Source of the DNA: Mustelus asterias
Lineage: Eukaryota
DNA length: 59,564 nucleotides
Assembly (NCBI RefSeq): GCF_964213995.1
Contig: NW_027592246.1
Location: forward strand, 1-59,564
Direction: 5' to 3'
Positions 2,537 to 53,269 of this stretch are shown piece after piece. The notes under the pieces were generated by a model, which was not told the origin of the DNA, did no database searches, and worked only from the letters and a program-made list of their open reading frames with translations. How positions within the stretch are numbered: the stretch's first letter is position 1; each line of letters opens with the position of its first letter. The position numbers were made by a program, and so were the translations under genes.

Positions 2537-3475
2537 TCACTCGTGAACTCGCTGGTGTCTCAGTAGGTGATAGGACTGAGTAAATCCCTTCCCACACTGG
2601 GAGCAGATGAATGGCCTCTCTCCAGTGTGAATTCGCTGGTGTCTCAGCAGTTGGAATGACTGAATGAATCCTATCCCACACTCAGAGCAGATGAAAGGCT
2701 TCTCTGTAGAGTGAACACGCTGGTGTCTCAGGAGGAGAGCTGACTGAGTGAATCCCTTACCACAGATGAAACAGATGAATGGGTTCTCCGCAGAGTGAAT
2801 TTGTTGATGTCTCTGCAAGCTCCACGACCGACTGAATCGCTTTCCACATTTAGTGCAAGAGAACGGCCTCGCCCCAGTGTGAACTCGCTGGTGTCGCAGG
2901 AGACTGAATGACCGAGTGAATCCCTTACCGCACACAGAACAGGAGAATGGGCTCTGACTAGAGTGAATGTATTGGTGTCTCTGTAGATTCCTTGTACTTT
3001 TGAAGCTCTTACCACAGTCCGAACATTTAAAAAGTCTCTCATCAGTGTGAACAAGCTGATGAGAAGTGAGATTAGTTAAACTGCTGAATCCCTTCCCACA
3101 CACAGAGCAGCTAAATGGTCTCTCCCCAGTGTGAACTTGCTGATGTACAGTGAGGTGAGATGACTGAGTGAATCCCATGCCACATTGGGAGCAGATGAAC
3201 GGCCTCACCCCAGTGTGAACTCGCTGGTGTCTCAGCAGGGTGGATGTCTGAGCAAATCCTTTCCCACACTTGAAGCAGGTGAATGGTCTCTCCCCAGTGT
3301 GACTGCGTCGATGAGTTTCCAGATCTGATGGGGATCTGATCACTTTACCACAGTCCCCATATTTCAGTGGCCTGTGTGTGATGTTGGCTCCCGTGTGAGT
3401 GCATCGATGATATTCCAGCCGGGATGGATAATTAAATCCCTTCCCACAGTCCCCACATTTCCACGGTTTCTCCAT
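2537..3475 (-). CDS. ZNF-A: C2H2 zinc-finger array protein, 11 finger units (unit 2 has C>Y), no effector domain
   Basis: 312-aa ORF starting [10 protein letters not shown], with CxxC..HxxxH repeats and TGERPF linkers. Candidate acceptor (tttcttttgcag on -) near 3839. Confidence 0.9.
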   Translation of the reverse strand: MEKPWKCGDCGKGFNYPSRLEYHRCTHTGANITHRPLKYGDCGKVIRSPSDLETHRRSHTGERPFTCFKCGKGFAQTSTLLRHQRVHTGVRPFICSQCGMGFTQSSHLTVHQQVHTGERPFSCSVCGKGFSSLTNLTSHQLVHTDERLFKCSDCGKSFKSTRNLQRHQYIHSSQSPFSCSVCGKGFTRSFSLLRHQRVHTGARPFSCTKCGKRFSRSWSLQRHQQIHSAENPFICFICGKGFTQSALLLRHQRVHSTEKPFICSECGIGFIQSFQLLRHQRIHTGERPFICSQCGKGFTQSYHLLRHQRVHE

Positions 3476-4071
3476 GGTGCTGGTGTCCTTGTGTCTCTCC
3501 AGGTTGCACGATCAGCTGAAGCTTCATCCACACACAGAACACATGTACAGTTTCTCCTCGCTGTGGATGGTGTGATGTTTTATCAGGCTGTGTAACTGGT
3601 TGAAGCTCTTTCCACAGTCAGTTCACTGGAACACTCTCATTCGGGTGTGTGTGTCTCGGTGCTTTTCCAGTCACAGTGATGTTTGAAATCTTTTCCCACA
3701 GACAGAACAGACATTCTCCTCCTTCCACAGTGAAAGGTTGATGATATTCAAATCCTGACGAATCGGGTGATTCTGTTAAATATTGATGTGATGTTTGCTT
3801 TTGTACTTTTTATCTGCAAATTCTCCCCTTCTAACACCCTGCAAAAGAAATTTAGGAAAATTATAACTAAGTCTGGATTAGAAGTTCTGAAAAGATAATT
3901 CTAGTTTTTCTGGAACATTTTTTCCTCTTTTGTTCCCCCAAATCTGTAAATCCCCGTCCCACACACTCTCCCTCCTCCCTGGGCTGAAATCCAAACCCAT
4001 CTCACCATCTCCACCATTTCTTTCCTCCACTCCCAGTTTTCTCCCTCCCTCTCCTCTGTCTGGGTGCAGAT

Positions 4072-4209
4072 ATCCACTCCATCTGACAAAGGAGCAGCGC
4101 TCCAAAAGCTAATCGCATTTGCTGCCAAATAAACCTGTTGGACTTTAACCTGGTGTTGTTAAAACTCTTACTGTGTTTACCCCAGTCCAATGCTGGCATC
4201 TCCACATCA
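4072..4209 (+). mobile_element. Penelope-like element 3' terminal fragment (family 1)
   Basis: Matches the terminal sequence of the GIY-YIG-bearing element at 35270-36044 (aaataaacctgttggactttaacctggtgttg...catctccacatca). Flanked by imperfect duplication tgggtgcagat / tgggttcagtt. Confidence 0.75.
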
Positions 4210-4559
4210 TGGGTTCAGTTCTCCAGCTCCTGTCTGCAGACTGACAATAAAACCAATGGGTCTTATTGGGGGTGTTGGGGCCTCCAGCGGGTGTTTGTGA
4301 ATCCTCCCCGCCCACCTCCCAGGGTTTCCTTCCTTCCCAGAGATCAGAGTCCTCATTGATCTGAGGCCAAAGTGTAACCTCTTATTTATTGTCCCCCTCC
4401 CCCATCCTCTGATGTGAACCATCCTCCAGTGGCTGAGCCAGGATGGGGCCGTTAACCTGGGCCTGTTCCCGGGAGGGAGGGAGGGAGAAGCCCCGCAGCT
4501 GCAAACAAGGGAGCTGACAATGATTCTGAAGGGTTTGCGGATCCACAAAGTGTTTCCAA

Positions 4560-5125
4560 ATCCTCCCAGCCACCGCCTAACGCTGACTCCGCTTCTCCGG
4601 GACAAACAAGCGCCAAGGACAGCAATGACACTGCGCATGCTCCACATCACAATGCTCGGGGGTTGATTGACGGCAACTCCGGACCAATAGGAAGAGGGGG
4701 CGGGGCTGGGGGACCGAGCGGGAGCGGCTGGTCCTCCAACCAATCAGAATGAATGAGGGGCGGGACCTGAAGCATGCGCAGTGCGGGTAATGGCGATGGA
4801 CGGACGGTTTTAAGTCGGAACCAAGATCAATACCAGGTAGAGGGCGGCGCGCGGGGAGCGATGAACATGGCGGGTGGGTGAAGAGCTTCCTAAACATGTT
4901 CAAAGGCAAACCCCGGAAATGAACTTCCCGGTTCCCCCCGTTTGTGGCAAATGGAGCCGCAACTTGTCGTGTTGGGCCTGGGCTGACTGCCGCCATTGAG
5001 GCTGAGTGTGGAAGACCGGCAGGGAGTGAAGTCCTGACGTCACAATAGAATTCATGACAGTAACGCGTCACAATGGAGAGTGAGTGTGACGTCACAATGG
5101 AGAGTGAGTGTGACGTCACAATAGA
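4560..5125. promoter_or_regulatory. CpG-rich bidirectional promoter (type A) between ZNF-A (-) and ZNF-B (+)
   Basis: GC box GGGGCGGGGC 4697-4706; CCAAT at 4684 and 4740; NRF1-like TGCGCATGC 4632 and GCATGCGCA 4772; YY1-like ATGGCG; CCGGAA; three TGACGTCA at 5035, 5087 and 5111. Lies between divergent ORFs. Confidence 0.75.
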
Positions 5126-5400
5126 ATGGATGAGGGTTCCAGATGAGCTGAGACTGGGGTGGAGTCGGGCGATGGCACTGAGGTGGAAGTAGACGGTCTT
5201 GATGATGATGTGGATATTGTGGCTGGAACCTCATCTTGGGGTGAAATATTTCACCAGGATTGTGAACAGCCTGGTTCAGCCTCAGACAGTTCCCAGGAAG
5301 AGGGATAGAGTTGCTGGTGAGGGAGTGGAGTTTGTAGTGGGGACTGAAGACAATGGGTTCAGAATTCCCAGTATTGATTTGGAAAAAAATTCTCTTAGTC
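5125..5400 (-). mobile_element. Old L2-clade LINE RT fragment
   Basis: ORF 5052..5465 contains QINTGNSEPIVF..SIPLPGNCLRLNQAVHNPGEIFHPKMRF, resembling the L2 QLNxxKTE..VRNLGVIFD region. An inverted copy lies at about 14470-14735. Confidence 0.65.
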
Positions 5401-5681
5401 CTTGACGTCAGACAAGTCAGGATGGTGTGTGAGTTGGAGGGGAACTTGGAGGTGATGGTGTTCACGTCTACCTGCTATCTTAGTCCTTCTTAATGATGGA
5501 GGTTGAGGGTTTGGGAGATTCTGTCAAAGTTCTCATTGAGTTGTTGATGTATAAAATCCCTCTCCTTCACCCCTGGCCTCTCCTACTTCTCTCTGTCTCC
5601 TCCCACAGTGCCCAGAGTCTTGTGTAGACCCAGCCTGGATGACAAGTTTCTTTTCGTGAAGGACATTAGTGAATCAGTTGG

Positions 5682-6139: not shown

Positions 6140-7093
6140 ATGGAAGAAAATAGCACCGTTCACAGTGAAGAGAAACTGTACATATGTTCTCTGTGTGGAC
6201 AAGACTTCAACCAATCATCTGGCCTTTCGGAGCACAATTGCAGTCACAACAGGGAGGTGGCATGGAAATGTAGAGACTGTGGGAAGGAATTCGATTACCC
6301 ATCCCTGCTGGAAACTCATCGGCGCAGTCACACTGGGGAGAGGCCATTCACCTGCTCCCAGTGTGGAAAGGGTTTTGCTCACCCATCCACCCTAGTAAAA
6401 CACCAGCGAATTCACACTGGGGAGAGACCATTCACCTGCTCCCAGTGTGGGAAGCGATTTGCTCACTCATCCAATCTGCTGAAACATCAGCGAATGCACA
6501 CTGGAGAGAGACCGTTCACCTGCTCTGTTTGTGGGAAGGGATTCACTCAGTCATCCAACCTTGCATTACACAAGCAAATTCACACTGAGGAGAAGCCGTT
6601 CACCTGCTCCCAATGTGGGAAGGGATTCAGTCGGTCATCAAATTTGCTGACACACCAGACTGTTCACACTGGGGAGAGGCCGTTCACCTGCTCCCAGTGT
6701 GGGAAGGGATTTGCTCACTCACACACACTGCGGACGCACCAGCGAATTCACACTGGGGAAAGACCATACACCTGCTCTGTATGTGGGAAGGGATTCAATC
6801 AGTCATCCAACCTAGCAATACACAAGGAAGGGCACACCGGGGAGAGACCGTTCACCTGCTCCCAATTTGGGAAGGGATTTGCTCATTCAGCCAACCTGCT
6901 GAAACACCAGAGAGTTCACACTGGGGAGAGGCCATTCATTTGCTCCGTTTGTGGGAAAGGTTTTGCTCGCTCATCCAACCTGCGGTTACACCAGCGAGTT
7001 CACACTGGGGAGAGACCTTTCATCTGCTCCACATGTGGGAAGGGATTCACTCAGTCATCCACTCTGCAGACACACCAGCGAGTTCACAAGTAA
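6140..7093 (+). CDS. ZNF-B: C2H2 zinc-finger array protein, 11 finger units (unit 9 has C>F)
   Basis: ORF 6134..7093 with first ATG at 6140 ([19 protein letters not shown]...). Acceptor aatttcacag at 6041-6050. AATAAA at 7271, 7336 and 7351. Confidence 0.9.
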
Positions 7094-7149
7094 CTATTGT
7101 GATGGGATTTTTCTGTTAATCATATTCGTTGAATGATTCAACCTCTGCT

Positions 7150-7965: not shown

Positions 7966-7984
7966 GAAAATTAGGGATTTTGCA

Positions 7985-9975: not shown

Positions 9976-9984
9976 GTTGTAGAG

Positions 9985-11756: not shown

Positions 11757-11984
11757 GGTCTCTCCCCAGTGTGAACTCACTGGGGTACAGTGAGTTGAGA
11801 TGATCCCCTGAACCCAGGCTCACAGTAAAAGCATCTGAATGGTCTCTCATCAGTGTGAATACGCTGATGAGACATCAGTTCTCCACAACTTTTATAGCAG
11901 TTCCTGCAGTCTGGGCATTTGTAAGGTCTCTCCCCAGTGTGAAACCAGAGTGTTTGCAGTGTGGATGATTGAGTGAATCCTTTC
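11757..11984 (-). pseudogene. Degenerate zinc-finger relic (about 2.5 fingers)
   Basis: Minus strand reads [62 protein letters not shown]. Its probable start (ggagaaactgtgaaaatgtggagactgtg) is at about 12762-12790, separated by an insertion. Confidence 0.75.
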
Positions 11985-12193
11985 TGTTCGGGTCCTGGAC
12001 CAGAACCTCTAAATTACATTAGGAAATCAGAGTAGACCCCAACAATTCTTCTATTTTGGCATAAATGTGAGGATAGGATGCTTCACTCCGGGGGTAATTC
12101 CACTGACAAATTAGAGATCTTTTATGGTACAACAAACTTTATTTAATGAAAGTTTAAATATAATTCCAACAAATGAAGCAGCTTGACTATTAA

Positions 12194-12500
12194 CATAGAA
12201 TCATAGAATCCCTCCTGTGCAGAAGGAGGCCATTCAGCCCATCGAGTCTGCACCGACCACAATCCCACCCAGGCCCTATTCTCTCAACCCCTCATATTTA
12301 CCCTGCTAATCCCCCGACACTAGGGTTAATTTAGCATAGCCAATCAACCTAACCTGCACATCTTTGGACTGTGGGAGAAAACCGGAGCATCCGGGGAAAC
12401 CCATGCAGACACGGGGAGAATGTGCAAACTCCACACAGATAGTGACCTGAGACCGGAATTGAACCCAGGTCCCTGGCGCTGTGAGGTAGCAGTGCTAACA
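12194..12500 (-). mobile_element. HE1-like V-SINE (5'-truncated)
   Basis: Reverse complement of the 10096 SINE. TAACA is present at both flanks. Confidence 0.85.
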
Positions 12501-12815
12501 GTTGAATAATATTTAAAAGTGAATGGAAAGAACTTTAATTTAATTTCTAACTTATTTCAGTTCCAAATAAGCAACATTCCTCTGACCAATGTAAATGCCA
12601 CTTTAAATAGTTAGCAACCATAAATATACTTGCTATAATGAGTATAGACTGCCTTGAAACTTCCAGAGAGAAGACAAGCCTCAGAGCAGCTTGTGGAAAC
12701 CCTCTATCAACAAAAAGTCCTCGATGAGCTTCCAGCTCTGACAGGTAACTGAAACTCTCCTCACAGTCTCCACATTTTCACAGTTTCTCCCTAATTTTAA
12801 ATCCAATCACAATAG

Positions 12816-13939
12816 TTACTTGTGAATTTCCTGGTGTGTCAGAAGATTCAATGAGGTAACATATCCCTTCCCACACTGCAAGCAGGTGAACGGCCCCTCC
12901 CCAGTGTGAACTCAATGATGTATTGGTAGTTTAGATGACTAATTGAATCCCTTCCCACACACAGAGCAGGTGAATGGCCTCTCCCTAATGTGAATTTGCT
13001 GGTGTGTGAACAAGGTGGCTGACTGAGCAAATCCCTTTCCACACTGGGAACAGGTGAATGGCCTCTCCCCAGTGTGAACTCGCTGGTGTTTCAACAAAGT
13101 AGATAAGTCAGCAAATCCCTTCCCACACTGGGAGCAAGTGAATGGCCTTTCCTGAGGCGCAGCACAGTGGTTAGCACTGCTGCCTCCCAGTTCCAGGGAC
13201 CTGGGTTCGATTCCCGGCTTGGGTCACTGTCTGTGTGGAGTTTGCACATTCTCCCCGTGTCTGCGTGCGTTTCCTCCGGGTGCTCCGGTTTCCTCCCACA
13301 GTCCAAAGATGTGCGGGTTAGGGCATTGGCCATGCTAAATTGACCCTTAGTGCCCTGGGATGTGTAGGTTAGAGGTATTAGTGGGGTAAATGTGTGGGGT
13401 TGTGGGGATACTGCCTGGTGGGATTATTGCCGGTGCAGACTCTATGGGCCGAATGGCCGCCTTCTGTACTGTAGGGTTTCTATGATTCTATGAGTATGAG
13501 TTCGCTGGTGTATCAGCAGAGTGGATGAGTGAGCGAATCCCTTCCCACATTCAGAGCAGGTGAACGGTTTCTCCCCAGTGTGAACTCGCTGGTGTATTGC
13601 GAGGTTGGATGACTGATTGAATCCCTTCCCACACTGGGAGCAGGTGAACGGCCTCTCCTCAGCATGAGTCCTTTGATGTATATTTAAGCTGGATAACTGA
13701 GTGAATTCCTTCCCACATTGAGAGCAGGTAAACGGCCTCTCCCCAGTGTGGCTGCGTCGATGAGTTTCCAGCAGGGATGGGTAATTGAATTCCTTCCCAC
13801 AATCCTCACACTTCCATGCCATCTCCCTGTTGTGACTGCAATTATGTTCCTAAAGGCTGGATGATTGGTTGAAGTCTTGTCCACAAACAGAACACGTGTA
13901 CAGTTTCTCTCCACTGTGAATGGTGCTTTTTTCTTCCAT
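12816..13939 (-). pseudogene. ZNF-C: inverted paralogue of ZNF-B, disrupted by a SINE; residual 126-aa 4-finger ORF at 13442..13822
   Basis: Collinear with ZNF-B from MEEKSTIHS to HK*. TAG at 13850-13852, SINE at 13157-13490, and further stops at 12939-12941 and 12912-12914. Confidence 0.85.
13157..13490 (+). mobile_element. HE1-like V-SINE inserted in the ZNF-C finger linker
   Basis: Near-complete SINE. TGAG at 13153-13156 and 13491-13494. Removing the insert restores HTQERPF. Confidence 0.9.
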
Positions 13940-20097: not shown

Positions 20098-20508
20098 TCA
20101 CTCGTGAACTTGTTGGTGTCTCAGCAGGGCAGATGAAGCTCTGAAACCCTTACCACACTGAGAGCAGGTGAATGGCTTCTCCCCAGTGTGAACTCGCAGG
20201 TGGGATGACCGAGTGAATCCCTCCCCACATTGAGAGCAGGTGAACAGTTTCTCCCCAGTGTGAACTCGCTGGTGTGTCTGCAGGTTGGATAACTGACTGA
20301 ATCCCTCCCCACACTGAGAGCAGGTGAATGGTCTCTCCCCAGTGTGAACTCGCTGGTGTATCTGCAGGCTGGATAACTGAGTAAACCCTTTCCCACAATC
20401 AGAGCAGGTGAATGGTCTCCCCCCAGTGTGGCTGCGCCGATGAGTTTCTAGCAGAGATGGGTAATTGAATCCCTTCCCACAGTCCCCACATTTCCACGGT
20501 TTCTCCAT
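20098..20508 (-). CDS. ZNF-D: short C2H2 protein, 5 finger units (unit 4 has a 12-nt deletion)
   Basis: ATG of [10 protein letters not shown] at 20508 in CACCATGG context. Unit 4 reads [10 protein letters not shown], four codons shorter than its neighbours. Confidence 0.8.
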
Positions 20509-20558
20509 GGTGCGGGTGTCCTTGTGACTCTCCAGGTTAAACAATCAGTTCAATCTCA

Positions 20559-20699
<141 letters not shown>

Positions 20700-22189
20700 T
20701 CACATTTATGCAAAAAAAAAGTCTGAAGCAGACAGAACAGAAAAGTATTTCTCCTTTTAGATTGAAAGGCCGATGGTATTCAGGTCCAGATGAACTAAAT
20801 GACTGTCAGAATTTGACATGACATTTGTTCGAGATTTCTGTCTGTCAATCCTCACCTTCTCATATTCTGTGAAAGGAGGTTACAAAAGTCATCACTGTCA
20901 GCACAGATTAGAAATTCAGAACAGACAATTCTAGTTTCTATGGAACATTGTTTCCTCTCTCATTCCCCAAAAGCTGTGAATCTCCATCCCACACACTCTC
21001 CCTCCATTCTCACTCTGCTGAATCTAATATTCACCCTCCCAATTCAAATGTGTTTAATGGATAGAATTGTTTCAGTTGGCTAAGATACAGGGGGCTATAA
21101 TTGATCATGATCTTGAACTACTTGTGAGGGTGTTCAAGCAGAGATGATCAATAACTTGGAAATGAAATTGGAGGTGCTGCAGAATGGGATCCACTCGACA
21201 CTGACAGAAAGTCGGCATGGTCCCAAGTGGTCCAATGGACTCCTTCTGTGCTGTAATGACTCTATTACTGGAAATATATCACGTAGCTACAAGTTAGGGC
21301 TCAGGTTAGAAACTCCAAAATGTTTTATGGAGCCCGCCTGAATCATAAGTTTTACATCTTGAATTTGGCATGAAATGTTTCACTTCAGGTATGATTCAAA
21401 TGACCCACCTTTTCACAAAGTTTACTTAAGAATATAGTTAACATGTTTAGTAAGAAAATTAGCAAGAACTTTTAGCAATTACAAACAAAACAAAACAACC
21501 AAGATAATGCATAACCCATCAACAGCAGAATATTTTCTTCAGGAAGGCAAGACCTTGCTTTCAGATAACCAACAGAATTTCCAAATAAAACAGGGGAGAG
21601 AAAGCGAGAGAGACGTCTCTTTTCAGCGTGATGCCCCTTCTAAAACTAAACTGCATCTCAGAACTGAAAATGAAAGAACTTCTGTCACCTGACCTGCAAC
21701 CAGTTTTTTATCCACAAATCCCAAGTAAAACCAAACAACCTCTATATAAGCCACTTAAGGAGCAAATAAAGGACTCTTTGTAGACAAGCCGGTGCCATAA
21801 TGTAAAAGAAACTGAAAGGTTTATTTACAACAGCAGGATCATGATTTTGAGATTTAAAAATTCGTAAAGAAACACTAATGTCACACGACCGTACGATATT
21901 ACAGATTAGAAATAATAATAAATGTACATTACTGCAGAACCATACATGTCTAATCTTGCCATATGACAATACTGAACATATCTCTAATCTATATTAATTT
22001 ACAGTCCCCTTAAATGTCAGATATTTCCTGGGGAAACCAGCCCTTTAATTGTGAACATTAGGAAAGGGACCTTTGAGCCAGACAAATCAATGTGTCAAGC
22101 TGAGGGAGCAAAGGATGTCAATGTTTTTAACAGAGAGAGACCTGGGCCAACCTTTCCACAATCTGCACCCTCCCTGGATTCACTTCCTT

Positions 22190-22960: not shown

Positions 22961-22964
22961 TCAC

Positions 22965-36044: not shown

Positions 36045-36352
36045 CTTCTATGAGATAGCTAGTTACTTATCTATCAGTTATCTACATTATCTATCAGGGA
36101 AATAAAGCTGCAAAGATATGAGGATAGAGCAGAGGAATGGGACTGACTGGATTGCTGTAGACACCTTGCATGGATTCAATGGGCTGAATGGCCCTGCACC
36201 AGAATGACACTTTCTTGTAATCTCATCTTCTAATTTAACCCTGGGAGTTCAGATATCACTCAGGTCCATCTGTTCTACACTCTCTCCAGGGCTATTATAT
36301 CCTGTTGCCCGGAACTGAGCACAGTTCTCCAGATGTGGTCTAACCAGGGTTT

Positions 36353-36600
36353 GTGAATCTCGGGGCCTTTCCAGTCACACTGAAACCCGAAATCTTCTCT
36401 CACAGACACAATCGACAAAACTGTTACCTTCCACATTCAGAGGCTGCTAATATTCAGGTTCTGATGTATTGCGTGGCTCCATCAGATCACAATGTGATGT
36501 TTGATTTGAGTTTCCCATATGTCAATTCTCCACTTCCAGCACTCTGTAAATTTACAGAAACCATCACAGTCAGTCCAGGATAGAAATTCACAACATTCTC
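36353..36600 (-). pseudogene. Orphan 5' piece of a ZNF exon (acceptor region plus start of the first decayed finger)
   Basis: Homologous to the acceptor and leader of the other ZNFs (tttccagtcacactga; aatattcaggt; cagtccaggatagaaatt). No finger array follows. Confidence 0.6.
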
Positions 36601-36879: not shown

Positions 36880-37500
36880 GACTGAGGTTTGAATCCCACT
36901 ACAGCAGATGGTCAAATTTGAATTCAATAAATATCTGGAATTGAAAGTCTAATGATGACCATGAAACCATTGTCGATTGTCGTAAAAAGCCAACTGATTC
37001 ACTAATGTCCTTGAGCCAAGGAAATCTGCTGCCTGACCTGGTCAGGTCTATATGTGATTCCAGATCTCCAGCAATGTGGTTGGTTGACTCTTAAAATGCC
37101 CTCTGAAGTGCACTCAGTTCAAGGGAAAATAAAGATGGGCAATAAATGCTGGTCCAGCCAGTGGCAGCCACATTCCCTGGATGAATTGGGAAACAAATCT
37201 CCCATCCTTATCTGATCTGGCCTAAATATGACTCCAAACCACTGAGATGCATAGGTTAGAGGGATTAGCGGGTAAATATGTAGGGATATGGGGGTAGGGC
37301 CTGGGTGGGATTGTGGTCGGTGCAGACTCGATGGGCCAAATGGCCTCTTTCTGCACTGTAGGGTTTCTATGATTTTATGTGGTTGACACTTAAAATTCCC
37401 TGTGAGATGGTCTAGCAAGCCACTCAGTTGAAGGACAATTAGGGATGGGCAATATATACTGGTCCAACCAGCGACTCCCACATTCCCTGAATGAATAAAA
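36880..37500 (+). mobile_element. Deu-domain-like SINE copies (SacSINE1-like) with a V-SINE 3' fragment at about 37245-37375
   Basis: Contains ttcactaatgtcc..ggaaatctgc..cctggtc..tgactccaga and gggcaataaatgctgg. Related copies at about 44580-44730 and 56800-57180. The family name is from recall. Confidence 0.55.
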
Positions 37501-37504
37501 AAAT

Positions 37505-37870
37505 TCCTGGAGACTCCAGTCCAACCCGGGAGAGTTGGTAACTGGGTCAGGCTCACAGCGCATGCGCCCTTCTGTACATTGTTCCTGTCACGATGGCGGC
37601 CGCTAACCCGGGCCTGGAGCCGCTCAGCTCCGACTCTATTCTGTACCAACTGAAGCGGGACCAGGAACATTTTATTCTGGATTGAAGCCTCTAGGGGATA
37701 TTTATGAAGCCTCCCAGCCCACTCCGCTGCTTCTATCCCTCCCCGGTCACCCAGCGGCTCCATTACTGAACCTCACTCCATTGTTTCTTTCCGGCTCCTC
37801 GCAGCTCCAGTCACAGTCCGGACTGCGCATGCTCCAGTCAGAGCCAGGTACCGCGTTTGCGCGGTGGATA
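37505..37870. promoter_or_regulatory. CpG-rich promoter-like segment
   Basis: GCGCATGCGC near 37558, GATGGCGGCCGC near 37592 and CTGCGCATGCTCCA near 37823. These are the same motif classes as in the other ZNF promoters. Lies upstream of the minus-strand relic and ZNF-F. Confidence 0.5.
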
Positions 37871-38024
37871 GGGCACATTCTCACCCGCAGAGAATGTTGG
37901 GTAATCACCCCGCCATTCACACTGGTTTTGTTAAATAGAAAATATGCTTTGCGATCTGAATATGATTGACAAATGTATTAAATCTATTCATGTGGAACTA
38001 AGGAGTAATATAGTAACTAAGGAC

Positions 38025-39390: not shown

Positions 39391-40799
39391 ATAATTTTAT
39401 CGATAGGTTTCTTGTTCTTAGTTTCCAAATAGCAGGTAAGAGACTTGTCCAGTACCCACTCAAGCTCTGATTTTTCACTGGCTATGCTTGGGTCGGATTA
39501 TAACCATTAGAATCTACTCTGAGGTCTGCTTTTCAGTCCAGTGCTATTTGGAGTATACCGTTACTGCACCGACTAACGGGTCACATGTCCCTCACAGTTC
39601 TTATCACAAATTTGGGATAAAATAATTTAAACAATGCCTGAGAACGCTTTTTAACTTCTTAACCAACTATCTGCCACTGTTTGTTGATTGGTCAGACCTC
39701 CTGTTCACAGATTCGGGTATCTCAGCCGCTGAACACCAGCCGGTCCTGGAATAAGTTTAATTCTAACTCATTCTGAGTAAATATTCTCACCAGGTCCTCT
39801 GTCAGGACCCTGCTAAGCAGCTTCAATGGTCCGTGATTGCAGAATCTGAGCAGTCACAGGAATGTGGTCAAGATAGCCCAGTCCCATAATGCCTCACATT
39901 CAATCCGCAGTCCTTCAGTTATAACAGGATATGTGGCTGTATGTAGCTGCCTCGGCCACGATCAGCGCCAACACTGCCTTCCTGAACTGCTACAATGCCT
40001 GAGGTGTAAGTACACCCACAGTGCTGTTAGGGAGGGATTTCCAGCTACACATTCCAGACTTTCACTGGACTGTAGGTGGATATCAGATTGATATATTCCA
40101 TTCAACCACACCCAAGGTGAGTTATTCCAATTCCTTTATTGTCCAGGACAAAATATTCACAATATCTTTAAAACAGAAATTAAACATTCCCATTTGATTT
40201 CAGGTATTAACACATTCTGTTAGTTTGTTCTTTATTGTCAATGTCAGGCTGGGGTTGTTCCCCTTGGAGCAAAGGAGGTTGAGGGGAGATTTGATAGAGG
40301 TGGACAAGATTCTGACAGGTTTAGATAAGGTGGACAAAGAAAAGCTGTTCCCATTCGCTGATGAGACAAGGACGAGGGGGGTCACAGATTTATGGTTTTG
40401 GGTCAGAGATGCGGGGCGGGGGGAATGGGAGGAAGAATATTTTGATGCAGCGAATAGTAATGACCTGGAACACGCTGCCTACGAGGGTGGAGGAAGTGGA
40501 GACAATAAACAATTACAAAGGAAATTGGATGGGCTTCTGGGGGAGTTTCAAACAGAAATGCTGACTAAATAACTCTGAACTTCCTCACACCCTGTCACTC
40601 TGTGATCCTTGTGAAATTTAAAACCAGGTATTCGCAACAAGACTCAAAGAGCATCAGCCCATTGGAGGCAAAGTTGTGAGACCGGCCAGTCCAGCAGAAA
40701 GAAACCCTCCGACCCTCCCCATTGACCAACTGTGAGAATGAACAAAATACAGTCCTGGATGTAATTGAGAGCAGAAACAATAACAGCAGAATCCAACCC

Positions 40800-41720
40800 C
40801 TGTGAACTTGTTGGTGCCTCAGCAGCTGTGATGAAATTCTGAACCCTTTTTATACACTGAGCAGGTTGACGGTTTCTCCCCAGTGTAAACTCACTGATGT
40901 CTCAACAGGTGGGATAACTGAGTGAATTCCTTCCCACACTGAGAGCAGGTGAATGGCCTCTCCCCATGTGAACTCGCTGGTGTCTCTGCAGGTTGGATGA
41001 ACGAGCGAAACCCTTCCCACACTGAGAGCAGGTGAACGGCCTCTCCCCGCTGTGAATGCGCTGATGTGTCCGCAGGACGGATGACCGAGTGAATCCCTTC
41101 CCACACTGAGAGCAGGTGAACGGCCTCTCCCCGCTGTGAATGCGCTGATGTGTCCGCAGGTCGGATGACCGAGCGAATCTCTTCCCACACTGAGAGCAGG
41201 TGAATGGCCTCTCCCCAGTGTGAACTCGCTGGTGTCTCTGCAAAGTGGATGACAAGGTGAATCCCTTTCCACACTGAGAGCAGGTGTACGGCCTCTCCCC
41301 AGTATGAACGCGTTGATGTGTCTGCAGGTCGGATAACCGAGTGAATCCCTTTCCACACTGAGAGCAGGTGAATGGCCTCACCCCAGTGTGAATTCGCTGG
41401 TGTGTCCATAGATTGGATAACTGGTTGAATCCCTTCCCACACTGAGGGCAGGTGAACGGCCTCTCCCCAGTGTGAATTCGCTGGTGTCTCTGCAAAGTGG
41501 ATGACACAGTGAATCACTTTCCACACTGAGAACAGGTGAACGGTCTCTCTCCAGTGTGAACTCGCTTGTGTGTCTGCAGGTGGGGGAACCGAATGAATCC
41601 CTCCCCACACTCAGAGCAGATGAATGGCCTCTCCCCAGTGTGGTTGCGCCGATGAGCATCCAGCAGAGAGGGGTATCTGTATCTCTTCCCACAGTCTGCA
41701 CATTTCCATGGTTTCTCCAT
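40800..41720 (-). pseudogene. ZNF-G: disrupted C2H2 array (about 11 finger units)
   Basis: [10 protein letters not shown] at 41720. GGA>TGA at 41514-41516 in finger 3, a 1-nt frameshift near 40966, and the normal stop region is deleted near 40800. Confidence 0.85.
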
Positions 41721-42479
41721 GGTGCAGGTGTCCTTGCCTCTCCCTAGGGTGGCCAATCAGTTGAAGCCTTGTCCACACACAGAACACGGGTACAGTCTCT
41801 CCCCGCTGTGAATGGTGTGATATTTATTCAGGCTGTGTAACTGGTTAAAGCTCTTCAGTCAGTGCACTGGAACACTCTCACTTGAATGTGGAAGTGTGTT
41901 GGTACTTTTCCAGTCACATTAATGTTTGAAATCTTTTCAAATCTTCCAGATTCAATGGCCGATGATATTCAGGTCCCAAGGAATATGACTCTGCCAGATC
42001 TAGACGTGACGTTTGAGATTTTAGCCTGTGATTCCTCTTTCAATATCCTGCAAAACAAGTTGACACAAGTCATCACTGTCAGTACAGGATCGAAATTCAG
42101 AACAGACAATTCCAGTTTCTATGGAACATTCTTTCCTCTCTCATTCCCCAAAAGCTGTAAATCTCCATCCCACACACTCTCCCTCCATTCTCACTCTGCT
42201 GTATCGAATATTCACCCTCCCAATTCTCCTGAAGGTGCTGATTGACGCTGATTGACAGATCCATGCTCACTGCTTCCTGTCCTGGACACAGAGAGCTGGA
42301 AATCTCCATGCAGGCTGCCAGACAGATATATGCCCATATGACTGGACTAAAAAATGTGTGGAATATACAGACTGGATTCACTTTCTTACCCTTCAGTTGC
42401 TGCAAGTCCCCAATTTCCCCCAGAATGAGAAAAGAAATGGAAAGGGGGAAACATTGATTTCCTCCCAGATGTTGCCCAG

Positions 42480-42965
42480 AGGAGGAAGTTTCAATCATTG
42501 GCCAACTTCCGCATTGTGACGGCACAATGGAACATCGCCTGAATTAGCCAATAGGAATAAGTCTGTTCCCATGTGACGTCCTGTGGTTCCAGTGCGCAGG
42601 CCCGGGCGAACGTCCACGGGAGCCCCGCCCCCACCCATTGTTCCCCTCCCCCTGCACCAGATCCAGCCAAGGTTTCCAGGCAACCGGCTGACGGCTCCGG
42701 CCAGAGCGAGAAGCCGCTCGGTGATCTCCCCCCCACCCCCCCCCCCCTCTCTCTACGGCGGCTGCTGCTCCAAAAAGAGATCGAGAGCGACCGCTGGCGG
42801 CAGCCGCACTGCGCCTGCTCCGGACAGCTCGGCTCAGCAGCGCTCTCTGCGCCTGCGTGCTGGGCTGCCAGCTGAGGGAGTGGGGGAGGGGACTTTGCAA
42901 AATCTCTTCCCATCATTTTCTTCCAAGTCCCGCAGTTTGATTTGAAACAGAACAGCTTCTGTTTG
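42480..42965. promoter_or_regulatory. CpG-rich bidirectional promoter (type B-like) upstream of ZNF-G
   Basis: ACTTCCG, TGACGTC, CCAAT and GC box. The 42240-42730 segment is duplicated at about 49860-50345. The plus-arm exon ends at CAACATCT|GTGAGG, 44305. Confidence 0.7.
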
Positions 42966-42968
42966 TAG

Positions 42969-44286
42969 CTTCATCACAGACTCAAACTTCACCACAGACT
43001 CCAACTTCACCACAGACTCAAACTTCACCACAGACTCAAACTTCACACACAGATTCCAACTTCACCACAGACTCAAACTTCACCACAGACTCAAACTTCA
43101 CCACAGACTCAAACTTCACCACAGACTCAAACTTCACACACAGACTCCAACTTCACACACAGACTCCAACTTCACCACAGACTCAAACTTCACACACAGA
43201 CTCAAACTTCACACACAGACTCCAACTTCACCACAGACTCAAACTTCACACACAGACTCAAACTTCACACACAGACTCAAACTTCACCACAGACTCAAAC
43301 TTCACCACAGACTCAAACTTCACACACAGACTCAAACTTCACACACAGACTCAAACTTCACCACAGACTCAAACTTCACCACAGACTCAAACTTCACACA
43401 CAGACTCAAACTTCACACACAGACTCAAACTTCACACACAGACTCAAACTTCACCACAGACTCAAACTTCACCACAGACTCAACCTTCACCACAGACTCA
43501 AACTTCACCACAGACGCAAACTTCACACACAGACTCAAACTTCACCACAGACTCAAACTTCACACACAGACTCAAACTTCACACACAGACTCAAACTTCA
43601 CACACAGACTCAAACTTCACACACAGACTCAAACTTCACACACAGACTCAAACTTCACACACAGACTCAAACTTCACACACAGACTCAAACTTCACCACA
43701 GACTCAAACTTCACAGACTCAAACTTCACACACAGACTCAAATTTCACACACAGACTCAAACTTCACACAGACTCAAACTTCACACACAGACTCAAACTT
43801 CACACACAGACTCAAACTTCACACACAGACTCAAACTTCACCACAGACTCAAACTTCACACACAGACTCAAACTTCACCACAGACTCAAACTTCACCACA
43901 GACTCAAACTTCACCACAGACTCAAACTTCACCACAGACCCAAACTTCACACACAGACTCAAACTTCACCACAGACTCAAACTTCACACACAGACTCAAA
44001 CTTCACACACAGACTCAAACTTCACCACAGACTCAAACTTCACACACAGACTCAAACTTCACACACAGACTCAAACTTCACACACAGACTCAAATTTCAC
44101 ACACAGACTCAAACTTCACACACAGACTCAAACTTCACACACAGACTCAAACTTCACCACAGACTCAAACTTCACCACAGACTCAAACTTCACACACAGA
44201 CTCAAACTTCACACACAGACTCAAACTTCACACACAGACTCAAACTTCACACACAGACTCAAACTTCACACACAGACTCAAACTTC
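42969..44286 (+). repeat. Minisatellite of about 1.3 kb with interspersed 18-bp and 19-bp units
   Basis: Units CCACAGACTCAAACTTCA (18) and CACACAGACTCAAACTTCA (19), roughly 70 copies, with few substitutions. Confidence 0.97.
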
Positions 44287-46881: not shown

Positions 46882-47469
46882 TCACTTGTGAACTTGTTGA
46901 TGTCTCAGGAGCCATTGTGACTGAGTGAATCCCTTCCCACACACAGAGCAGTTGAATGGCCTCTTAGTGTGAGTGCGTTGGTGAGCCAGCAGGTTGAAAG
47001 ACTTTGCGAATCCCTTCCCACACACGGAGCAAGTGAATGGCCTCTCCCCTGTGTGAACTCGCTGGTGAGCAGAGAGGTTGGATGACCGATTGAATACCTT
47101 CCCACATACGGAGCAGATGAATGGTCTCTCCCCAGTATGAACTCGCTGGTGTGACAGCAGGTGGAATGACTGAGTGAATCCCTTCCCACACACGGAGCAG
47201 ATGAATGGTCTCTCCCCGGTGTGAGTGTGTTGGTGCACAGTGAGTGCTGAAGAATGCCTGAACCTCTTCCCACAGGAGGTGCAGGTGAATGGCTTTTCCT
47301 CAGTGTGAATTCTCTGGTGAGACCAAAGGCCAGATGACTGAATGAATCCCTCCCCACAGACAGAACAGGTGAACGGTTTCTCACCAGTGTGACTGCGCCG
47401 ATGATTTTCCAGCAGGGAAGGGTAACTGAATCCTTTCCCACAGTCCCCACATTTCCACGGTTTCTCCAT
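46882..47469 (-). CDS. ZNF-H: C2H2 array protein, 7 fingers
   Basis: 195-aa [13 protein letters not shown]...HQQVHK. Upstream region is paralogous to ZNF-A. Confidence 0.9.
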   Translation of the reverse strand: MEKPWKCGDCGKGFSYPSLLENHRRSHTGEKPFTCSVCGEGFIQSSGLWSHQRIHTEEKPFTCTSCGKRFRHSSALTVHQHTHTGERPFICSVCGKGFTQSFHLLSHQRVHTGERPFICSVCGKVFNRSSNLSAHQRVHTGERPFTCSVCGKGFAKSFNLLAHQRTHTKRPFNCSVCGKGFTQSQWLLRHQQVHK

Positions 47470-48026
47470 GATACTGGTGTCCTTATGTTTCTCCAGGTTA
47501 AACGATCAGTTGAAGCCTCATCCACACACAGAACATGTGTACAGTTTCTCCTTGCTGTGAATGGTGTGATGTTTTTTAAGGCTGTGTAACTGGATAAAGC
47601 TCTTTCCACAGTCAACTCACTGAAACAGTCTCACTCGGGTGTGCGTGTATCTTGGTGCTTTTTCAGTCACACTGATGTTTGAAATCTTCTCCTCCAGACA
47701 GAAGACAAACATTTCTCCTTCCACGTTCAAAGTCTGAGGATATTTAAGTCCAAGTGAATCGAGACTCTGTCTGATTTTGATGTGATGTTTCTTCACCTCA
47801 CCTGTAAAAGGAGTTTACAAAATTAATCACTGTCAGTCCAGGATAGAAATTTTGAACAGGCAATTCTAATTCTCTGGAAAATTTCTTCCTCTCTTGTTCC
47901 CCAAATCAATAAATTCCTGTCCCACAAACTCTCCCTCCTCCCTGGGCTGAAATCCAAACCCATCTCACCATTTCTTTTCTCCACTCCCAGTTTGCTCCCT
48001 CCCTCTCCTCTGTCTGGGTTCAGTTC

Positions 48027-48194: not shown

Positions 48195-48772
48195 TGGGTT
48201 CAGTTCTCCAGCTGCTGTCTGCAGACTGACAATAAAACCAATGGGTCTGATTGGGGGTGTTGGGGCCTCCAGCGGGTGTTTGTGAATCCTCCCCGCCCAC
48301 CTCCCAGGGTTTCCTTCCTTCCCAGAGATCAGAGTCCTCATTGATTTGAGGCCAAAGTGTAACCTCTTATTTATTGTCCCCCTCCCCCATCCTCTGATGT
48401 GAACCATCCTCCAGTGGCTGAGCCAGGATGGGGCCGTTAACCTGGGCCTGTTCCCGGGAGGGAGGGAGGGAGAAGCCCCGCAGCTGCAAACCAGGGAGCT
48501 GACAATGATTCTGAAGGGTTTGCGGATCCACAAAGTGTTTCCAAATCCTCCCAGCCACCGCCTAACGCTGACTCCGCTTCTCCGGGACAAACAAGCGCCA
48601 AGGACAGCAATGACACTGCGCATGCTTCACATCACATGCCCGGGCACTGATTGACGGCAGCGCCGGACCAATAGGAAGAGGGGGCGGGGCTGGAGGACCG
48701 AGCTGGAGCAGCTGGTCCTCCAACCAATCGGTGTGAATGAGGGGCGGGACCTGAAGCATGCGCAGTGCGGGT

Positions 48773-48858
48773 GAACCAGATAAACCTGTTGGACTTTAAC
48801 CTGGTGTTGTTTGACTTGTTGCTGTGTTTACCCCAGTCCAAAGCCGGCATCTCCACAT
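48773..48858 (+). mobile_element. 86-bp PLE family 1 terminal insertion with 10-bp TSD
   Basis: CAGTGCGGGT at 48763-48772 and 48859-48868. The paralogous site at 4779-4788 is empty. Confidence 0.85.
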
Positions 48859-49130
48859 CAGTGCGGGTAATGGCGATGGACGGCCGGTTTTAGTTTGGAA
48901 GCGAGAGCAATACGAGGTAGAGGGCGGCGTGCGGGGAATGATAAATGTGGCGGGTGGGTGGAGAGGCTTTGTAAACATGTTGTTCAAACCCAAACCCCGG
49001 ACAAGAACTTCCCGGTCCCCCGCTTTGTACCAAATGGAGCGGCAGCTTGTAGTGTTAGACCCGGGCTGACTGCCGCCATTGAGGCTGCATGTGGGAGGCC
49101 GGCAGGGATTGTGATCGGAGAGTGAAGCCC

Positions 49131-49268
49131 TGACGTCACAATGGAATGGGTGAGGGTGTGACGTCACAATGGAATGGGTGAGGGTGTGACGTCACAATGG
49201 AATGGGTGAGGGTGTGAGGTCACAATGGAATGGGTGAGGGTGTGATGTCACAATGGAATGGGTGAGGG
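49131..49268 (+). repeat. Five 28-bp tandem units, each starting with a CRE or CRE variant
   Basis: TGACGTCACAATGGAATGGGTGAGGGTG at 49131, 49159 and 49187, with variants at 49215 (TGAGGTCA) and 49243 (TGATGTCA). Confidence 0.92.
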
Positions 49269-49317
49269 TTCCAGATGAGCTGAGACTGGGCTGGAGTCGG
49301 GCGATGACACTGACATG

Positions 49318-49860
49318 TGGCCCGGTGGCACAGTGGTTAGTGCAGCTGCCTAACAGCGCCAGGGACCCGGGTTCAATTCCAGCCTCGGGTCACTGTCTGT
49401 GCAGAGTTTCTACATTCTCCCCGTGTCTGTGTGGGTTTCTTCCGGATGTTCCGGTTTTCCTTCCACAGTCCAAAGATGTGCCGGCGTTGGACTGGGGTAA
49501 GCACAGTAAGTAATCTCACAACACCAGGTTAAAATCCAACAGGTTTATTTGGTAGCACAAGCCACAAGCTTTCAGAGCGCTGCCCCTTCATCAGGTGAGT
49601 GGGAGTTCTGTTCACAAACAGGGCATATAAAGACACAAACTCAATTTACAAGATAATGGTTGGAATACGAGTCTTCAAACATAATCAAGTCTTAAAGGTA
49701 CAGACAATGAGAGTGGAGAGAGGGTTAAGCACAGGTTCAAGAGATGTGTATTGTCTCCAGCCAGGACAGTTAGTGAGATTTTGCAAAGCCAGGCAAGTCG
49801 TGGGGGTTACAGATAGTGTGACATGAACCCAAGATCCCGTTTGAGGCCATCCTCATGTGT
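49318..49860. mobile_element. V-SINE 5' half (+, about 49318-49478) joined to a PLE family 1 3' end (-, about 49476-49860)
   Basis: The SINE stops at cagtccaaagatgtg and is followed by the reverse PLE terminus, homologous to 35270-35625. Hammerhead-like CTGATGA..GAAA on - at 49561-49603. Confidence 0.8.
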
Positions 49861-50089
49861 GATTGACAGATCCATGCTCACTGCTTCTTGCCCTGGATGC
49901 AGAGAGCTGAAAATTTCCATGCAGGCTGCCAGACAGATAAATGTCTACATTACTGGAGTAAAAATGTGTGGAATATACAGACCGAATTCACTTCATTTCC
50001 TTCAGTTGCTGCAAGTCCCCAACTTCCCCCAGAATGAGGAAAGAAATGGAAAGGGGGAAACATTGATTTCCTCCCAGATGTTGAACAGA

Positions 50090-50572
50090 GGAGGAAGTTT
50101 CACTCTGAAGCTCATTGGACAACTTCCGTATTGTGACGTCACAATAGAGCCCTGCCTGAATCAGCCAATAGAAATCACTCTGCTCCGGGGTGACGTCTCC
50201 GGGTTCCAGTGCGCAGGCCCGGGCGCGCGGACCCAGGAGCCCCGCCCCCACCCATTGTTCCCCTTCCCCTGCACCTCCTTGAACCAAGGTTTCCAGGCAA
50301 CCGGCTGACGGCTCCGGCAAGAGCGAGAAGCCGCTCAGTGAGCTCTCCCGCCCCCCGGCCCAGGACTACACATGTGCGAGGGAGAGGGGAAGCTGCGCAT
50401 GTGCGGGGGAGAACCCACCCTCTGATCTTCATGCTGAGGTGTTGACCAATGGGAAGAGTTGGAGGACCGGAAGGACTCTGGTCTTCCAGCCAATCAGAGC
50501 GTGGGCTTTGTGTGAATGATGATTGATTTTCAGACAGACTCAAACTTCCTCCTGTCTCAAACATCTGTGAGT
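50090..50572. promoter_or_regulatory. Type B promoter and first exon for ZNF-I (+)
   Basis: ACTTCCG next to TGACGTCA (about 50122-50141), CCAAT boxes, GC box and TGCGCATGTGCG. Exon ends at AACATCT|GTGAGT, 50567. Confidence 0.7.
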
Positions 50573-50719
50573 AAAACACTTTCTCTTCAACCCCCTTTCC
50601 ATTTCTTTTCTCATTCTGGGGGAAATTGGGGACTTGCAGCAACTGAAGAGAAAGGAAGTGAATCCAGGGAGGGTGCAGACTCTGGAAAGGTTGGTCCAGG
50701 TTTCTCGCTCTCTCGAACC

Positions 50720-51920
50720 AGAAAATGATCCATTTCTGCCCACTGTTTGCTGTTAGCCAATCTTCTATCCACGCCAATATGTTATCCCCGCAGCATGAAC
50801 TTTTATTTGCTGCAATAACCTTTCATGTGGCACCTCATCAAATGTCTTCTGGAAATCTGAGTACAGCACATCCACCGGTTTCCCTTTATCCAATTCCCGA
50901 TGGGGAATTTTAGAAAATTGAACAACACATCAACTATCTCACTCTGTTAAGACCCGAGAATGAAGCCCAGCAGGACCCGAGGACTCATCAGCCCACAGCT
51001 CCAACAGTTTGCTGAGGACCACTTCCCTGGGAATTGTGCTTTTTCAGAGTTCATCCCACACTTCTGTTTTCTGATTTCCAGCTGTTTCTGAGTTTTAACT
51101 GTATCCTCTATTGTGAACACCGAGGCAAAATACTTGTTCAATTCATCTCCCAGCTCCTTATTTTTCATTATCAATTCCTGGACTCACTTTCTATTAGACA
51201 GTTAAGAAATGAGGTCGAGCAAGTGACTGAAGTGTCAGTCAAGGAGCACTATTGGGAGCACCAATAGTTTCAAAATAGTTCAGGAAAAAGATAGGACAGG
51301 TCCACAGGTCAAGGCCCTAAACTGGAGCAGGGCCACTTTTGTGGGCATTAGGCAGGATCTAGCAGATGTCGATTAGGTGAGTTTGTTTGAAGGGAAAGGA
51401 ATGACTGGCAAATGGGAGGTTTTCAAAGTGTGATATCAAGAGTCCAGGGGCAGTATATTCCTGTTAAGATGCAGGGAAAGAATGGTAAATTTAAGGATCT
51501 CTGGCAGACAAGGGACATTGAGGCTCTGGTCAGGTAAAAGAAGGAAGCATACATTGGGTTTAGGCAATCGGGGACAAGTGAATCACTCTGACTATAAAAA
51601 GTGTAAGAAAATACTGAAGAGGGAAATCAGGAGGACAAAAAGAGGGTCTGATATGGATCTGGCAGGTAAGATTAAAGAAAATTCCAAGAGGTTCTATAGC
51701 TATATTAAGAGTAAGACGGTGGCTAGAGAGAGAATAGATCCCCTTAAAAATCAGTATGGCCATCTGTGTGTGGAGCCACAGGAGATGGGTGAGATTTTTA
51801 ATGAATACTTCTCCTCTGTGTTTACTGCGGAGAGCACCATGGGTGCTAAAGAAATAAGGGAAACAAGTGGTGATGTCTTGGGCACACGCATGTTACTTGG
51901 GAGGAGGTATCTGCAGCCTT
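50720..51920. mobile_element. Old CR1 fragments on both strands in the ZNF-I intron
   Basis: ELNKYFASVFT on - (50947..51174). KREIRRTKR..KIKENSKRFYSYIK..FNEYFSSVFT on + (51482..51994). Confidence 0.8.
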
Positions 51921-52107
51921 ATAAAAGCAAATTACTGCGGATGCTGGAATCTGAAACCACGAGAGAAAATGCTGGAAAATCTCAGCAGTTCTAGCAGCAT
52001 CTGTAAGGAGAGAAAAGAGCTGATGTTTCTTGTCTAGATGGCCCTTTGTCAAAGCTCTGAAACATCAGTTCTTTTCTCTCCATACAGATGCTGCCAGACC
52101 TGCTGAG
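51921..52107. mobile_element. PLE family 2 fold-back fragment
   Basis: Reverse terminal motif followed by an inverted arm (ctcagcag..gcagcatctg versus cagatgctgccagacctgctgag). Confidence 0.65.
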
Positions 52108-52594
52108 AATGGGGAGAGAGTATGTGGGATGGAGATTTACAGCTTTTGGGGAATGAGAGAGGAAAGAATGTTCCATAGAAATTGTCTGTTCTGAATTTCT
52201 ATCCTGTACTGACACTGATGACTTTTGTAAACTCATTTTACAGGATCTTGAAAGAGGAATCACAGGCCGAAATCTCAAACGTCACGTCTAGACGCGACAG
52301 AATCATATTCCTTGGGACCTCAATATCATCGGAATTTGAATCCAGAAGGAGAAATGATTGTCCAGTCTGTCGATTTGAAAAGATTTGAAATGTCAGTGTG
52401 AGTGAAAAAGCATCGACACACTGCCACACTTGAGTGAGAGTGTTCCAATGCACTGACTAAAGAGCTTTAACCAGTTACACAGTCTGAATAAATATCACAC
52501 CATTCACAGCGGGTAGAGACTGTAATCTTGTTCTGTGTGTGGACGAAGTTTCAACTAATTGTCCACCCAAGGGAGAGGTAAGGACACCTGCACC

Positions 52595-53269
52595 ATGGAG
52601 AAACCATGGAAATGTGTGGACTGTGGGAAAAGATACAGAGCCCCATGTCTGCTGGCAGCTCATTGGCGCAGCCACACTGGGGAGAGACCATTCATCTGCT
52701 CTCAGTGTGAGAAGGGATTCATTCAGTTATCCAGCCTGCAGACACACGAGCGAGTTCACACTGGGGAGAGGCCATTCACCTGCTCTCAATGTGGGAAGGG
52801 ATTCACTCAGTCATCCCACCTGCAGACACACCAGCGAGTTCACACTGAGGAGAGGCCATTCACCTGCTCTCAGTGTGGGAAGGGATTCATTCAGTTATCC
52901 AGCCTGCAGAGACACCAGCGAGTTCACATTGGAGAGAGGCCGTTCACCTGCTCTCAGTGTGGGAAGGGATTCACTTGTTCATCTAACCTGCAGACACACC
53001 AGCGAGTTCACACTGGGGAGAGACCGTTCACCTGCTCTCAGTGTGGGAAGGGATTCACTCAGTTATCCACCCTGCAGACACACCAGCGAGTTCACACTGG
53101 GGAGAGACCATTCACCTGCTCTCAGTGTGGGAACGGATTCACTCAGTTATCCAGCCTGCAGACACACCAGCGAATTCACACTGGGGAGAGGCCGTTCACC
53201 TGCTCCCAGTGTGGGAAGGGATTCAGAGTTTCATCCACCCTGCTGAGACACCAGCAAGTTCACGAGTGA
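52595..53269 (+). CDS. ZNF-I: C2H2 array protein, 8 highly similar fingers
   Basis: ATG of [10 protein letters not shown] at 52595 (CACCATGG). Acceptor ttttacag near 52243. Confidence 0.9.

Follow-up and report, generated by a model that had tools for sequence, protein, structure and literature searches.

How can zinc-finger proteins act when no effector domain accompanies their arrays? Chondrichthyans raise the question, since they have many poly-zinc-finger (poly-ZNF) arrays yet are reportedly KRAB-free. In the passages covered of Wells et al. (2023; PMC10547256), poly-ZNF open reading frames (ORFs) range from 475 to 3586 across the seven chondrichthyan genomes retrieved (475 in Callorhinchus, 1223 in Amblyraja, 1851 in the white shark and 3586 in the catshark), and dozens of ZNF families are described as uncharacterised in its discussion. 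A whale shark paper reports, in the portion covered, that cartilaginous fishes have lost KRAB-box families (PMC8455134), and PRDM9 alone is listed for the whale shark in the section consulted of another source (PMC11603059). The locus analysed here is a stretch of 59,564 nt of Mustelus asterias (GCF_964213995.1, contig NW_027592246.1, positions 1 to 59,564, forward strand), referred to below as the window. It holds a cluster of C2H2 zinc-finger genes with one atypical finger in common, which we call the W finger. The reading that we favour, with a probability of roughly 0.55, is that this is a birth-and-death cluster of an elasmobranch-wide, DNA-binding poly-C2H2 family that would work without a separate effector, and that the W finger is the anchored 5' unit of its arrays.

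A six-frame scan found nine C2H2 arrays (A to I) within 2537-53269, with 5 (D) to 12 (F) units when broken ones are included, in agreement with an original prediction made for this locus. They are of the Krüppel type, with tandem CX2CX12HX3H units, TGE(K/R)P linkers and a predicted beta-beta-alpha fold; gene F, for example, contains 12 zf-C2H2 stretches with a period of 84 nt. Seven of the nine arrays are open ORFs, among which A, B and D hold one broken unit each, while C and G are pseudogenes. The genes are as follows, with the position of the first Cys of each W finger.

2537..3475, minus strand: ZNF gene A, its ORF open from MEKPWK onwards, with 11 units, of which the second is a broken W-finger duplicate (Cys to Tyr); first Cys at 3457
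6140..7093, plus strand: ZNF gene B, subfamily 2, with an MEE start and an atypical unit 0 (HNCSH) ahead of the W finger; 11 units in all, with Cys to Phe in one of them; first Cys at 6269
12816..13939, minus strand: ZNF pseudogene C, subfamily 2, unit 0 broken by a stop, a dispersed repeat inserted at about 13161-13491, later a stop and a frameshift; first Cys at 13810
20098..20508, minus strand: ZNF gene D, open ORF, 5 units, 4 residues missing from the fourth; first Cys at 20490
25676..26434, plus strand: ZNF gene E, open ORF, 9 fingers; first Cys at 25694
30803..31813, minus strand: ZNF gene F, open ORF with 12 fingers, in which a higher-order repeat spans three fingers (period 252); first Cys at 31795
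40790..41720, minus strand: ZNF pseudogene G, finger 3 interrupted by a stop, frameshifts close to the 3' end; first Cys at 41702
46882..47469, minus strand: ZNF gene H, open ORF, 7 fingers; first Cys at 47451
52595..53269, plus strand: ZNF gene I, open ORF, 8 fingers; first Cys at 52613

The claim of one common atypical finger is borne out. The pattern WKCxDCG[KR]x[FY]xxP[SC]xLxxH is matched in 9/9 arrays, and among the 65 other array fingers neither Trp before the first Cys nor Glu/Asp at helix position +5 occurs even once, and Pro at +1 occurs once. In a tree of 79 window fingers, all nine W fingers fall into one clade (ultrafast bootstrap, UFBoot, 98). Beyond these nine, two broken copies lie at 3299-3365 and 12721-12779. 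The predicted position needs amending: the W finger is indeed the second unit in B, but it is second in C too, and in A and D-I it is first only within the ORF, because three decayed fingers lie upstream. Its own residues at -1/+3/+6 vary, giving seven distinct fingerprints in the nine genes. Later fingers differ as widely as had been predicted, with 57 distinct -1/+2/+3/+6 fingerprints among 65. The net charge of the W finger (+2.3) is like that of the other fingers (+2.2).

AlphaFold gives the W finger a canonical fold, with a helix of residues 17-28 that starts at the Pro (mean predicted local confidence, pLDDT, 79.5). P17, E21 and R25 stand at i, i+4 and i+8 of this predicted helix and form one stripe. 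Pro at +1 is found in the DNA-bound fingers 1 and 3 of ZFP568 as well. A homodimer prediction of the 33-residue finger with zinc scored 0.21 and 0.19 against a mark of 0.32, which we count as evidence neither way. The tCWCH2-type motif, in which we take the Trp to lie between the cysteines, was considered and rejected as a poor match.

The seven genes of subfamily 1 (A, D, E, F, G, H and I) have a common anatomy upstream of the W finger. Behind an aligned, acceptor-like AG, about 330-360 nt still read as a leader plus three decayed fingers, disrupted by stops and frameshifts:

3476..3840, minus strand: leader of A, putative splice acceptor (3840) and three zinc fingers, all decayed; the array frame closes at 3514
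20509..20868, minus strand: leader of D, acceptor, decayed fingers, of which one is intact though out of frame (20589-20651)
25330..25675, plus strand: leader of E (5' edge approximate), decayed fingers, one intact but out of frame (25534-25596)
31814..32174, minus strand: leader of F, acceptor, decayed fingers
41721..42300, minus strand: leader of G, acceptor at 42049, short conserved intron, putative donor GAGG/GTGAAT at about 42215
47470..47803, minus strand: leader of H, acceptor, decayed fingers
52242..52594, plus strand: leader of I, acceptor, decayed fingers

Counting back from the first Cys of the W finger, all seven have a stop in the array frame at exactly 19 codons (TGA in six, TAA in I). 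An ATG follows six codons before this Cys, with A at -3 and G at +4, a strong Kozak context, again in 7/7; its Met therefore occupies the linker Gly position of TGEKP (T-M-EKP). In subfamily 2 (B and C) the start lies one atypical unit earlier, likewise behind an in-frame stop. A Heterodontus model has Arg where the window genes have the leader stop, and for this reason the stop may be a product of CpG decay. Each gene appears to consist of a single coding exon. Between acceptor and main ATG, the scored leaders of A and D-I (for example 31814-32174) contain one to five upstream ATGs each, which could damp translation; zebrafish C2H2 mRNAs are described, in the part covered of PMC11620358, as subject to Znf598 decay.

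The absence of a recognisable KRAB, SCAN or BTB exon had also been predicted, and the search agrees: 0/311 stop-free ORFs of at least 40 residues on the coding strand upstream of the genes match KRAB, SCAN, BTB, ZAD or SET. The matches that did arise were to RVT_1 (4) and relic fingers (3), with three further ones that are weak and unrelated. There is thus no in-frame KRAB-A exon among these upstream ORFs, and the frame is closed 19 codons before the W finger. Nor is a SCAN, BTB or ZAD domain found at the N-terminus of the window genes or of 34 elasmobranch relatives, in whose Pfam lists there is no KRAB, SCAN, BTB or ZAD accession. In the seven subfamily 1 genes, an upstream effector exon could hardly be joined to the array.

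These relatives come from three protein searches, of which we used the best 120 of 404, 120 of 253 and 120 of 505 matches, and the counts that follow, like the Pfam result above, hold among the matches listed. The 34 proteins were grouped by hand (33 by name, and P0041 by 95% identity to Stegostoma); skate PRDM9 was excluded. All database matches were drawn using words from the W finger, that is with queries derived from the window, and conservation is therefore biased upward. The relatives are predicted models, many of those from Heterodontus being chimeras of neighbouring genes. The best identities to the first 42 residues of F are found in sharks, at 79-90%, which upholds an elasmobranch origin for the chondrichthyan family that had been proposed. 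The closest W-finger matches come from sharks and rays, namely Heterodontus, Scyliorhinus, Cetorhinus, Chiloscyllium, Pristiophorus, Heptranchias, Mustelus, Hemitrygon, Amblyraja, Mobula, Narcine and Stegostoma. The signature [YF]PxxL[ED] occurs in 30 of 428 fingers in the 34 elasmobranch proteins, against one of 3266 in 308 others, and signature fingers are always first (28) or second (12) in the array (40/40). Six models, which belong to four shark genera, are predicted to start with M-E-K-[PA]-W. Since relatives carry Tyr or Cys in place of the Trp before the first Cys, we rejected this Trp as the defining mark. Among these models, the W/YPSxLE finger is the mark of an elasmobranch family.

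One shark-ray gene appears to evolve slowly (P0024 of Mobula, P0047 of Stegostoma, and P0041): its YPSELE finger is the second and 22/23 identical, its remaining fingers are 18-23/23 identical, and atypical CxxC..HxC units lie upstream. It may be a conserved member of the family or its progenitor; among the best 120 of 505 matches we saw no orthologue from outside the elasmobranchs. Models from Amblyraja (P0169), Scyliorhinus (P0033) and Heterodontus (P0051) read an acidic leader, DLxESL...EYH.PLN, homologous to the decayed leader of the window, which may be a vestige of an ancestral N-terminal region. Searches of the ESM Atlas returned generic C2H2 clusters only, and a PDB sequence search generic ZNFs (157 sequences).

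Is the W finger under a different regime of selection from its neighbours? We used a codon model of our own, with trees built from the same 69 nt and 7-9 W-finger sequences, and ran several tests. Among the seven subfamily 1 genes (21 pairs), DNA identity was 80.3% in the W finger, 79.3% in the adjacent non-coding leader and 75.8% in finger 2. Pairwise ratios of non-synonymous to synonymous change (dN/dS) were 0.51-0.59 in finger 1 and 0.46-0.58 in fingers 2, 3 and last. The synonymous distance (dS) was 0.41 in the last finger, 0.36 in finger 1 and about 0.6 in fingers 2-3; the low values are expected, because both the first and the last finger are anchored edges. The two edges also behave alike at +1/+5, where the modelled ratio (omega) was 0.42 in the last finger and 0.36 in finger 1. 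With a single omega per finger class, the W finger gave 0.57-0.68 and the remaining fingers 0.51, so that the greater constraint expected of the first finger did not materialise. Zinc ligands and core sites are strongly constrained (omega 0.07-0.11, p<0.001 against 1).

The base-contact sites (-1, 2, 3 and 6) behave differently. Across 52 later fingers of intact genes their omega was 1.62 (p=0.001), which points to diversifying selection, a trait of transposable element (TE)-silencing ZNF families, and is consistent with the predicted role of the variable fingers in reading DNA. In the W finger the same sites gave 2.59 in the seven intact genes (p=0.028) and 1.76 in all nine (p=0.14), with per-site values of 2.0-5.2 at -1, +3 and +6. 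The W finger is, by this measure, not globally more constrained than the others, and looks like a DNA reader.

In the seven genes the old N-terminal leader and three fingers have decayed, and the linker ATG before the W/YPS finger is the only place left for translation to start. According to the favoured reading, transcription would run from CpG-island, often bidirectional, promoters through non-coding exons. The W finger would be common to all the genes as an anchored, positionally orthologous 5' edge unit, spared by the turnover of the array, and would still read DNA at -1/+3/+6; its fixed residues may serve in fold capping, or in packing against finger 2 or DNA. The proteins would bind lineage-specific sequences, with roughly even odds that repeats are among them, although for this cluster TE targeting is suggested by analogy only. 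They may act by occupancy, or the array in general may bind cofactors for them, with no dedicated domain involved.

Several observations weigh against this account. The signature is preserved in sharks and rays alike, in contrast to the finger immediately before it, which has often decayed, and the N-terminal truncation ends exactly at the W finger. The Lys before Cys1, the knuckle Asp, P+1, E+5 and R+9 of the W finger have an omega of 0.20-0.21 (0.21 with p=0.004 in nine fingers, the sites having been chosen post hoc), against 1.14 at the same five sites in other fingers, and for this reason the sharing of the finger is probably not due to descent alone. Across species, variability at -1 is 1.21 bits in the W finger (30 sequences) against 2.62 bits in the next finger (27), both among word-selected matches. 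Finally, the exon structure is one predicted from DNA.

The constrained sites suggest an alternative that we consider possible, if unlikely, namely that the finger has two faces: -1/+3/+6 would read DNA, while W-K, the knuckle Asp and the P+1/E+5/R+9 stripe would dock a common corepressor or partner, so that one finger would take on the task that falls to KRAB or FiNZ in other lineages. The contrast in omega favours it, as do the single helix stripe on which P17, E21 and R25 are predicted to lie, the near-confinement of the signature to elasmobranch matches, its place among the first two units in every case, and the retention of the W finger although everything upstream became untranslated. 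The part of PMC12774644 covered here offers a Drosophila precedent of N-terminal C2H2 interaction fingers, but those are isolated and have an extra beta-strand, whereas the W finger is linked by a canonical TGERPF and has nothing N-terminal to it. The site set is post hoc and comes from matches found with window-derived queries, the 7-9 sequences were analysed with a home-made codon model uncorrected for gene conversion or CpG decay, E+5 is altered in two genes (G and I), and the Trp is Tyr or Cys in several relatives. Helix-start Pro also marks spacer or inter-finger fingers, as set out in the part covered of a review (PMC12264921), which would be a structural explanation. The original prediction had the first finger as a protein-interaction module, and it is this weaker version of it that survives, because the five non-base-contact residues are constrained only in the W finger. 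A broader proposal, slightly less probable again, is that of an elasmobranch TE-facing ZNF repertoire without an accessory domain, in which such a two-faced finger reads DNA and docks a common chromatin cofactor, and of which one shark subfamily starts at the finger via the linker ATG.

Could an upstream coding exon, with a FiNZ-like effector, be hidden from our search and joined to the array at a weak AG in the 36 nt that separate leader stop and ATG? A novel short domain would evade Pfam and the 40-residue cut-off, and some gene models of other sharks enter via these AGs. Moreover, the acidic leader read by the skate and catshark models is homologous to the decayed one, and therefore the ancestor may have had a coding leader. 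However, the AGs in question are mostly GAG/AAG with 3-10 pyrimidines in 15, and the models that use them are chimeras of neighbouring genes and repeats. A conserved YAG acceptor 327-363 nt upstream has 9-12 pyrimidines in 15 and 3-7 stops per frame behind it (scored in 6/7 genes). These stops argue against any in-frame upstream exon, FiNZ-like included, and the strong Kozak context of the ATG in 7/7 genes adds to the case; we hold a hidden exon to be improbable.

Turnover of the cluster, as envisaged in the original prediction, is evident from the two pseudogenes and from several relics, among them

11757..12785, minus strand: remnants of a further gene, with a broken W finger (12721-12779) and an array fragment (11757-11984)
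36340..36600, minus strand: orphan leader relic of a lost gene (J), array gone

Spacers contain reverse-transcriptase fragments and dispersed repeats. Six CpG islands lie upstream of genes or between divergent ones:

4501..5250: putative bidirectional promoter, a CpG island in the spacer of the divergent pair A/B
22201..22650: CpG island in the spacer of the divergent pair D/E
37351..37950: CpG island upstream of J and F
42451..43050: putative promoter of G, a CpG island
48451..50400: two CpG islands between divergent H and I, 48451-49200 homologous to that of A and 49951-50400 to that of G

The motifs enriched in the islands are presumably cyclic AMP response elements (CRE), NRF1 and ETS sites and GC boxes. 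Beside the A/B and H islands, tandem 24-bp and 28-bp repeats (5035-5122 and 49131-49269) multiply the site TGACGTCA, which we take to be a CRE. Directly upstream of the island of G lies a minisatellite (42975-44287) of about 71 copies of a 19-bp unit with 95% match, open in all three plus-strand frames. Two 3' fragments of long interspersed elements (17992-18543 and 58719-59270), in opposite orientation, are 99.3% identical over 552 bp, which suggests recent retrotransposition. Duplicated blocks were also found at 27530-29570/53928-55969 (92.8% identity) and 15471-16528/34216-35269 (90.7%); the former extends the shared 3' flank of E and I and so points to segmental duplication.

It might be argued that most of the cluster has been carried along by segmental duplication, is decaying and has no specific function at present. 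Two of nine genes are pseudogenes, A, B and D have broken units, relics are present, and uncorrected CpG decay or gene conversion could inflate omega. The strong constraint on core residues, the seven ORFs that stay open and the CpG islands that have been kept nevertheless make this explanation very unlikely. Least credible is a first finger that serves as a dedicated protein-interaction module and does not read DNA: hydrophobic residues predominate at -1/+3/+6, +5 is acidic and Pro at +1 is rare in other fingers (84/3266), but the finger as a whole, -1/+3/+6 included, lacks the higher constraint that such a module would have, its base-contact sites evolve as fast as those of the others, and its charge and variety of fingerprints are ordinary.

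To return to the favoured reading, the cluster belongs to an elasmobranch ZNF family that is real and, apparently, undescribed, and whose anatomy, effector-less and with the start in a linker, is unusual. No description of the W finger or its family was found in the literature searched, whose coverage leaves out most subscription journals, nor in the passages covered of PMC10547256. For the question of how arrays act without an effector, the window supplies the W/YPSxLE finger as the mark of a family, a gene anatomy of decayed leader and linker ATG, and five residues as candidates; with these in hand, a single peptide of 30 residues is enough to put the question to the test. Should the finger be a mere anchored edge unit, the outcome would be routine, but an uncharacterised vertebrate ZNF family would still have gained a usable definition.

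The features of tetrapod KRAB-ZFP clusters are well established, and the window resembles them in its tandem genes, single array exon, TGE(K/R)P linkers, pseudogenes and diversifying base contacts; it differs in that our search found no KRAB exon, and in having a leader closed by stops and an ATG inside a linker. As described in the passages covered of Wells et al. (PMC10547256), the cyprinid FiNZ-ZNF genes are likewise a lineage-specific, KRAB-free expansion with a common N-terminal mark and positive selection at base contacts. FiNZ, however, is a separate acidic domain of 28 residues on its own upstream exon, whereas the mark in the window is a finger encoded by the array exon itself, which appears to have no coding exon ahead of it; and TE repression has been shown for the FiNZ genes, whereas for the window cluster it is a matter of analogy. 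The CGxPhi-type N-terminal C2H2 dimerisation domains of Drosophila (PMC12774644, in the part covered) are also distinctive N-terminal fingers common to clustered paralogues, but they are Diptera-specific, lie at least 100 residues from the array and need an extra beta-strand. The W finger has no such extension and is joined directly into the array, its ORF starting at MEKPWKC and running through TGERPF to finger 2. Further parallels are the spacer finger ZF2 of HIC2, with its helix-start Pro, and ZF1 of ZFP568, with its inter-finger role (PMC12264921, in the part covered), both of which have Pro at helix +1 and stand at the N-terminus of a DNA-binding array or close to it. These are single-gene cases, whereas the W finger is the mark of an entire family and diversifies at its base-contact sites.

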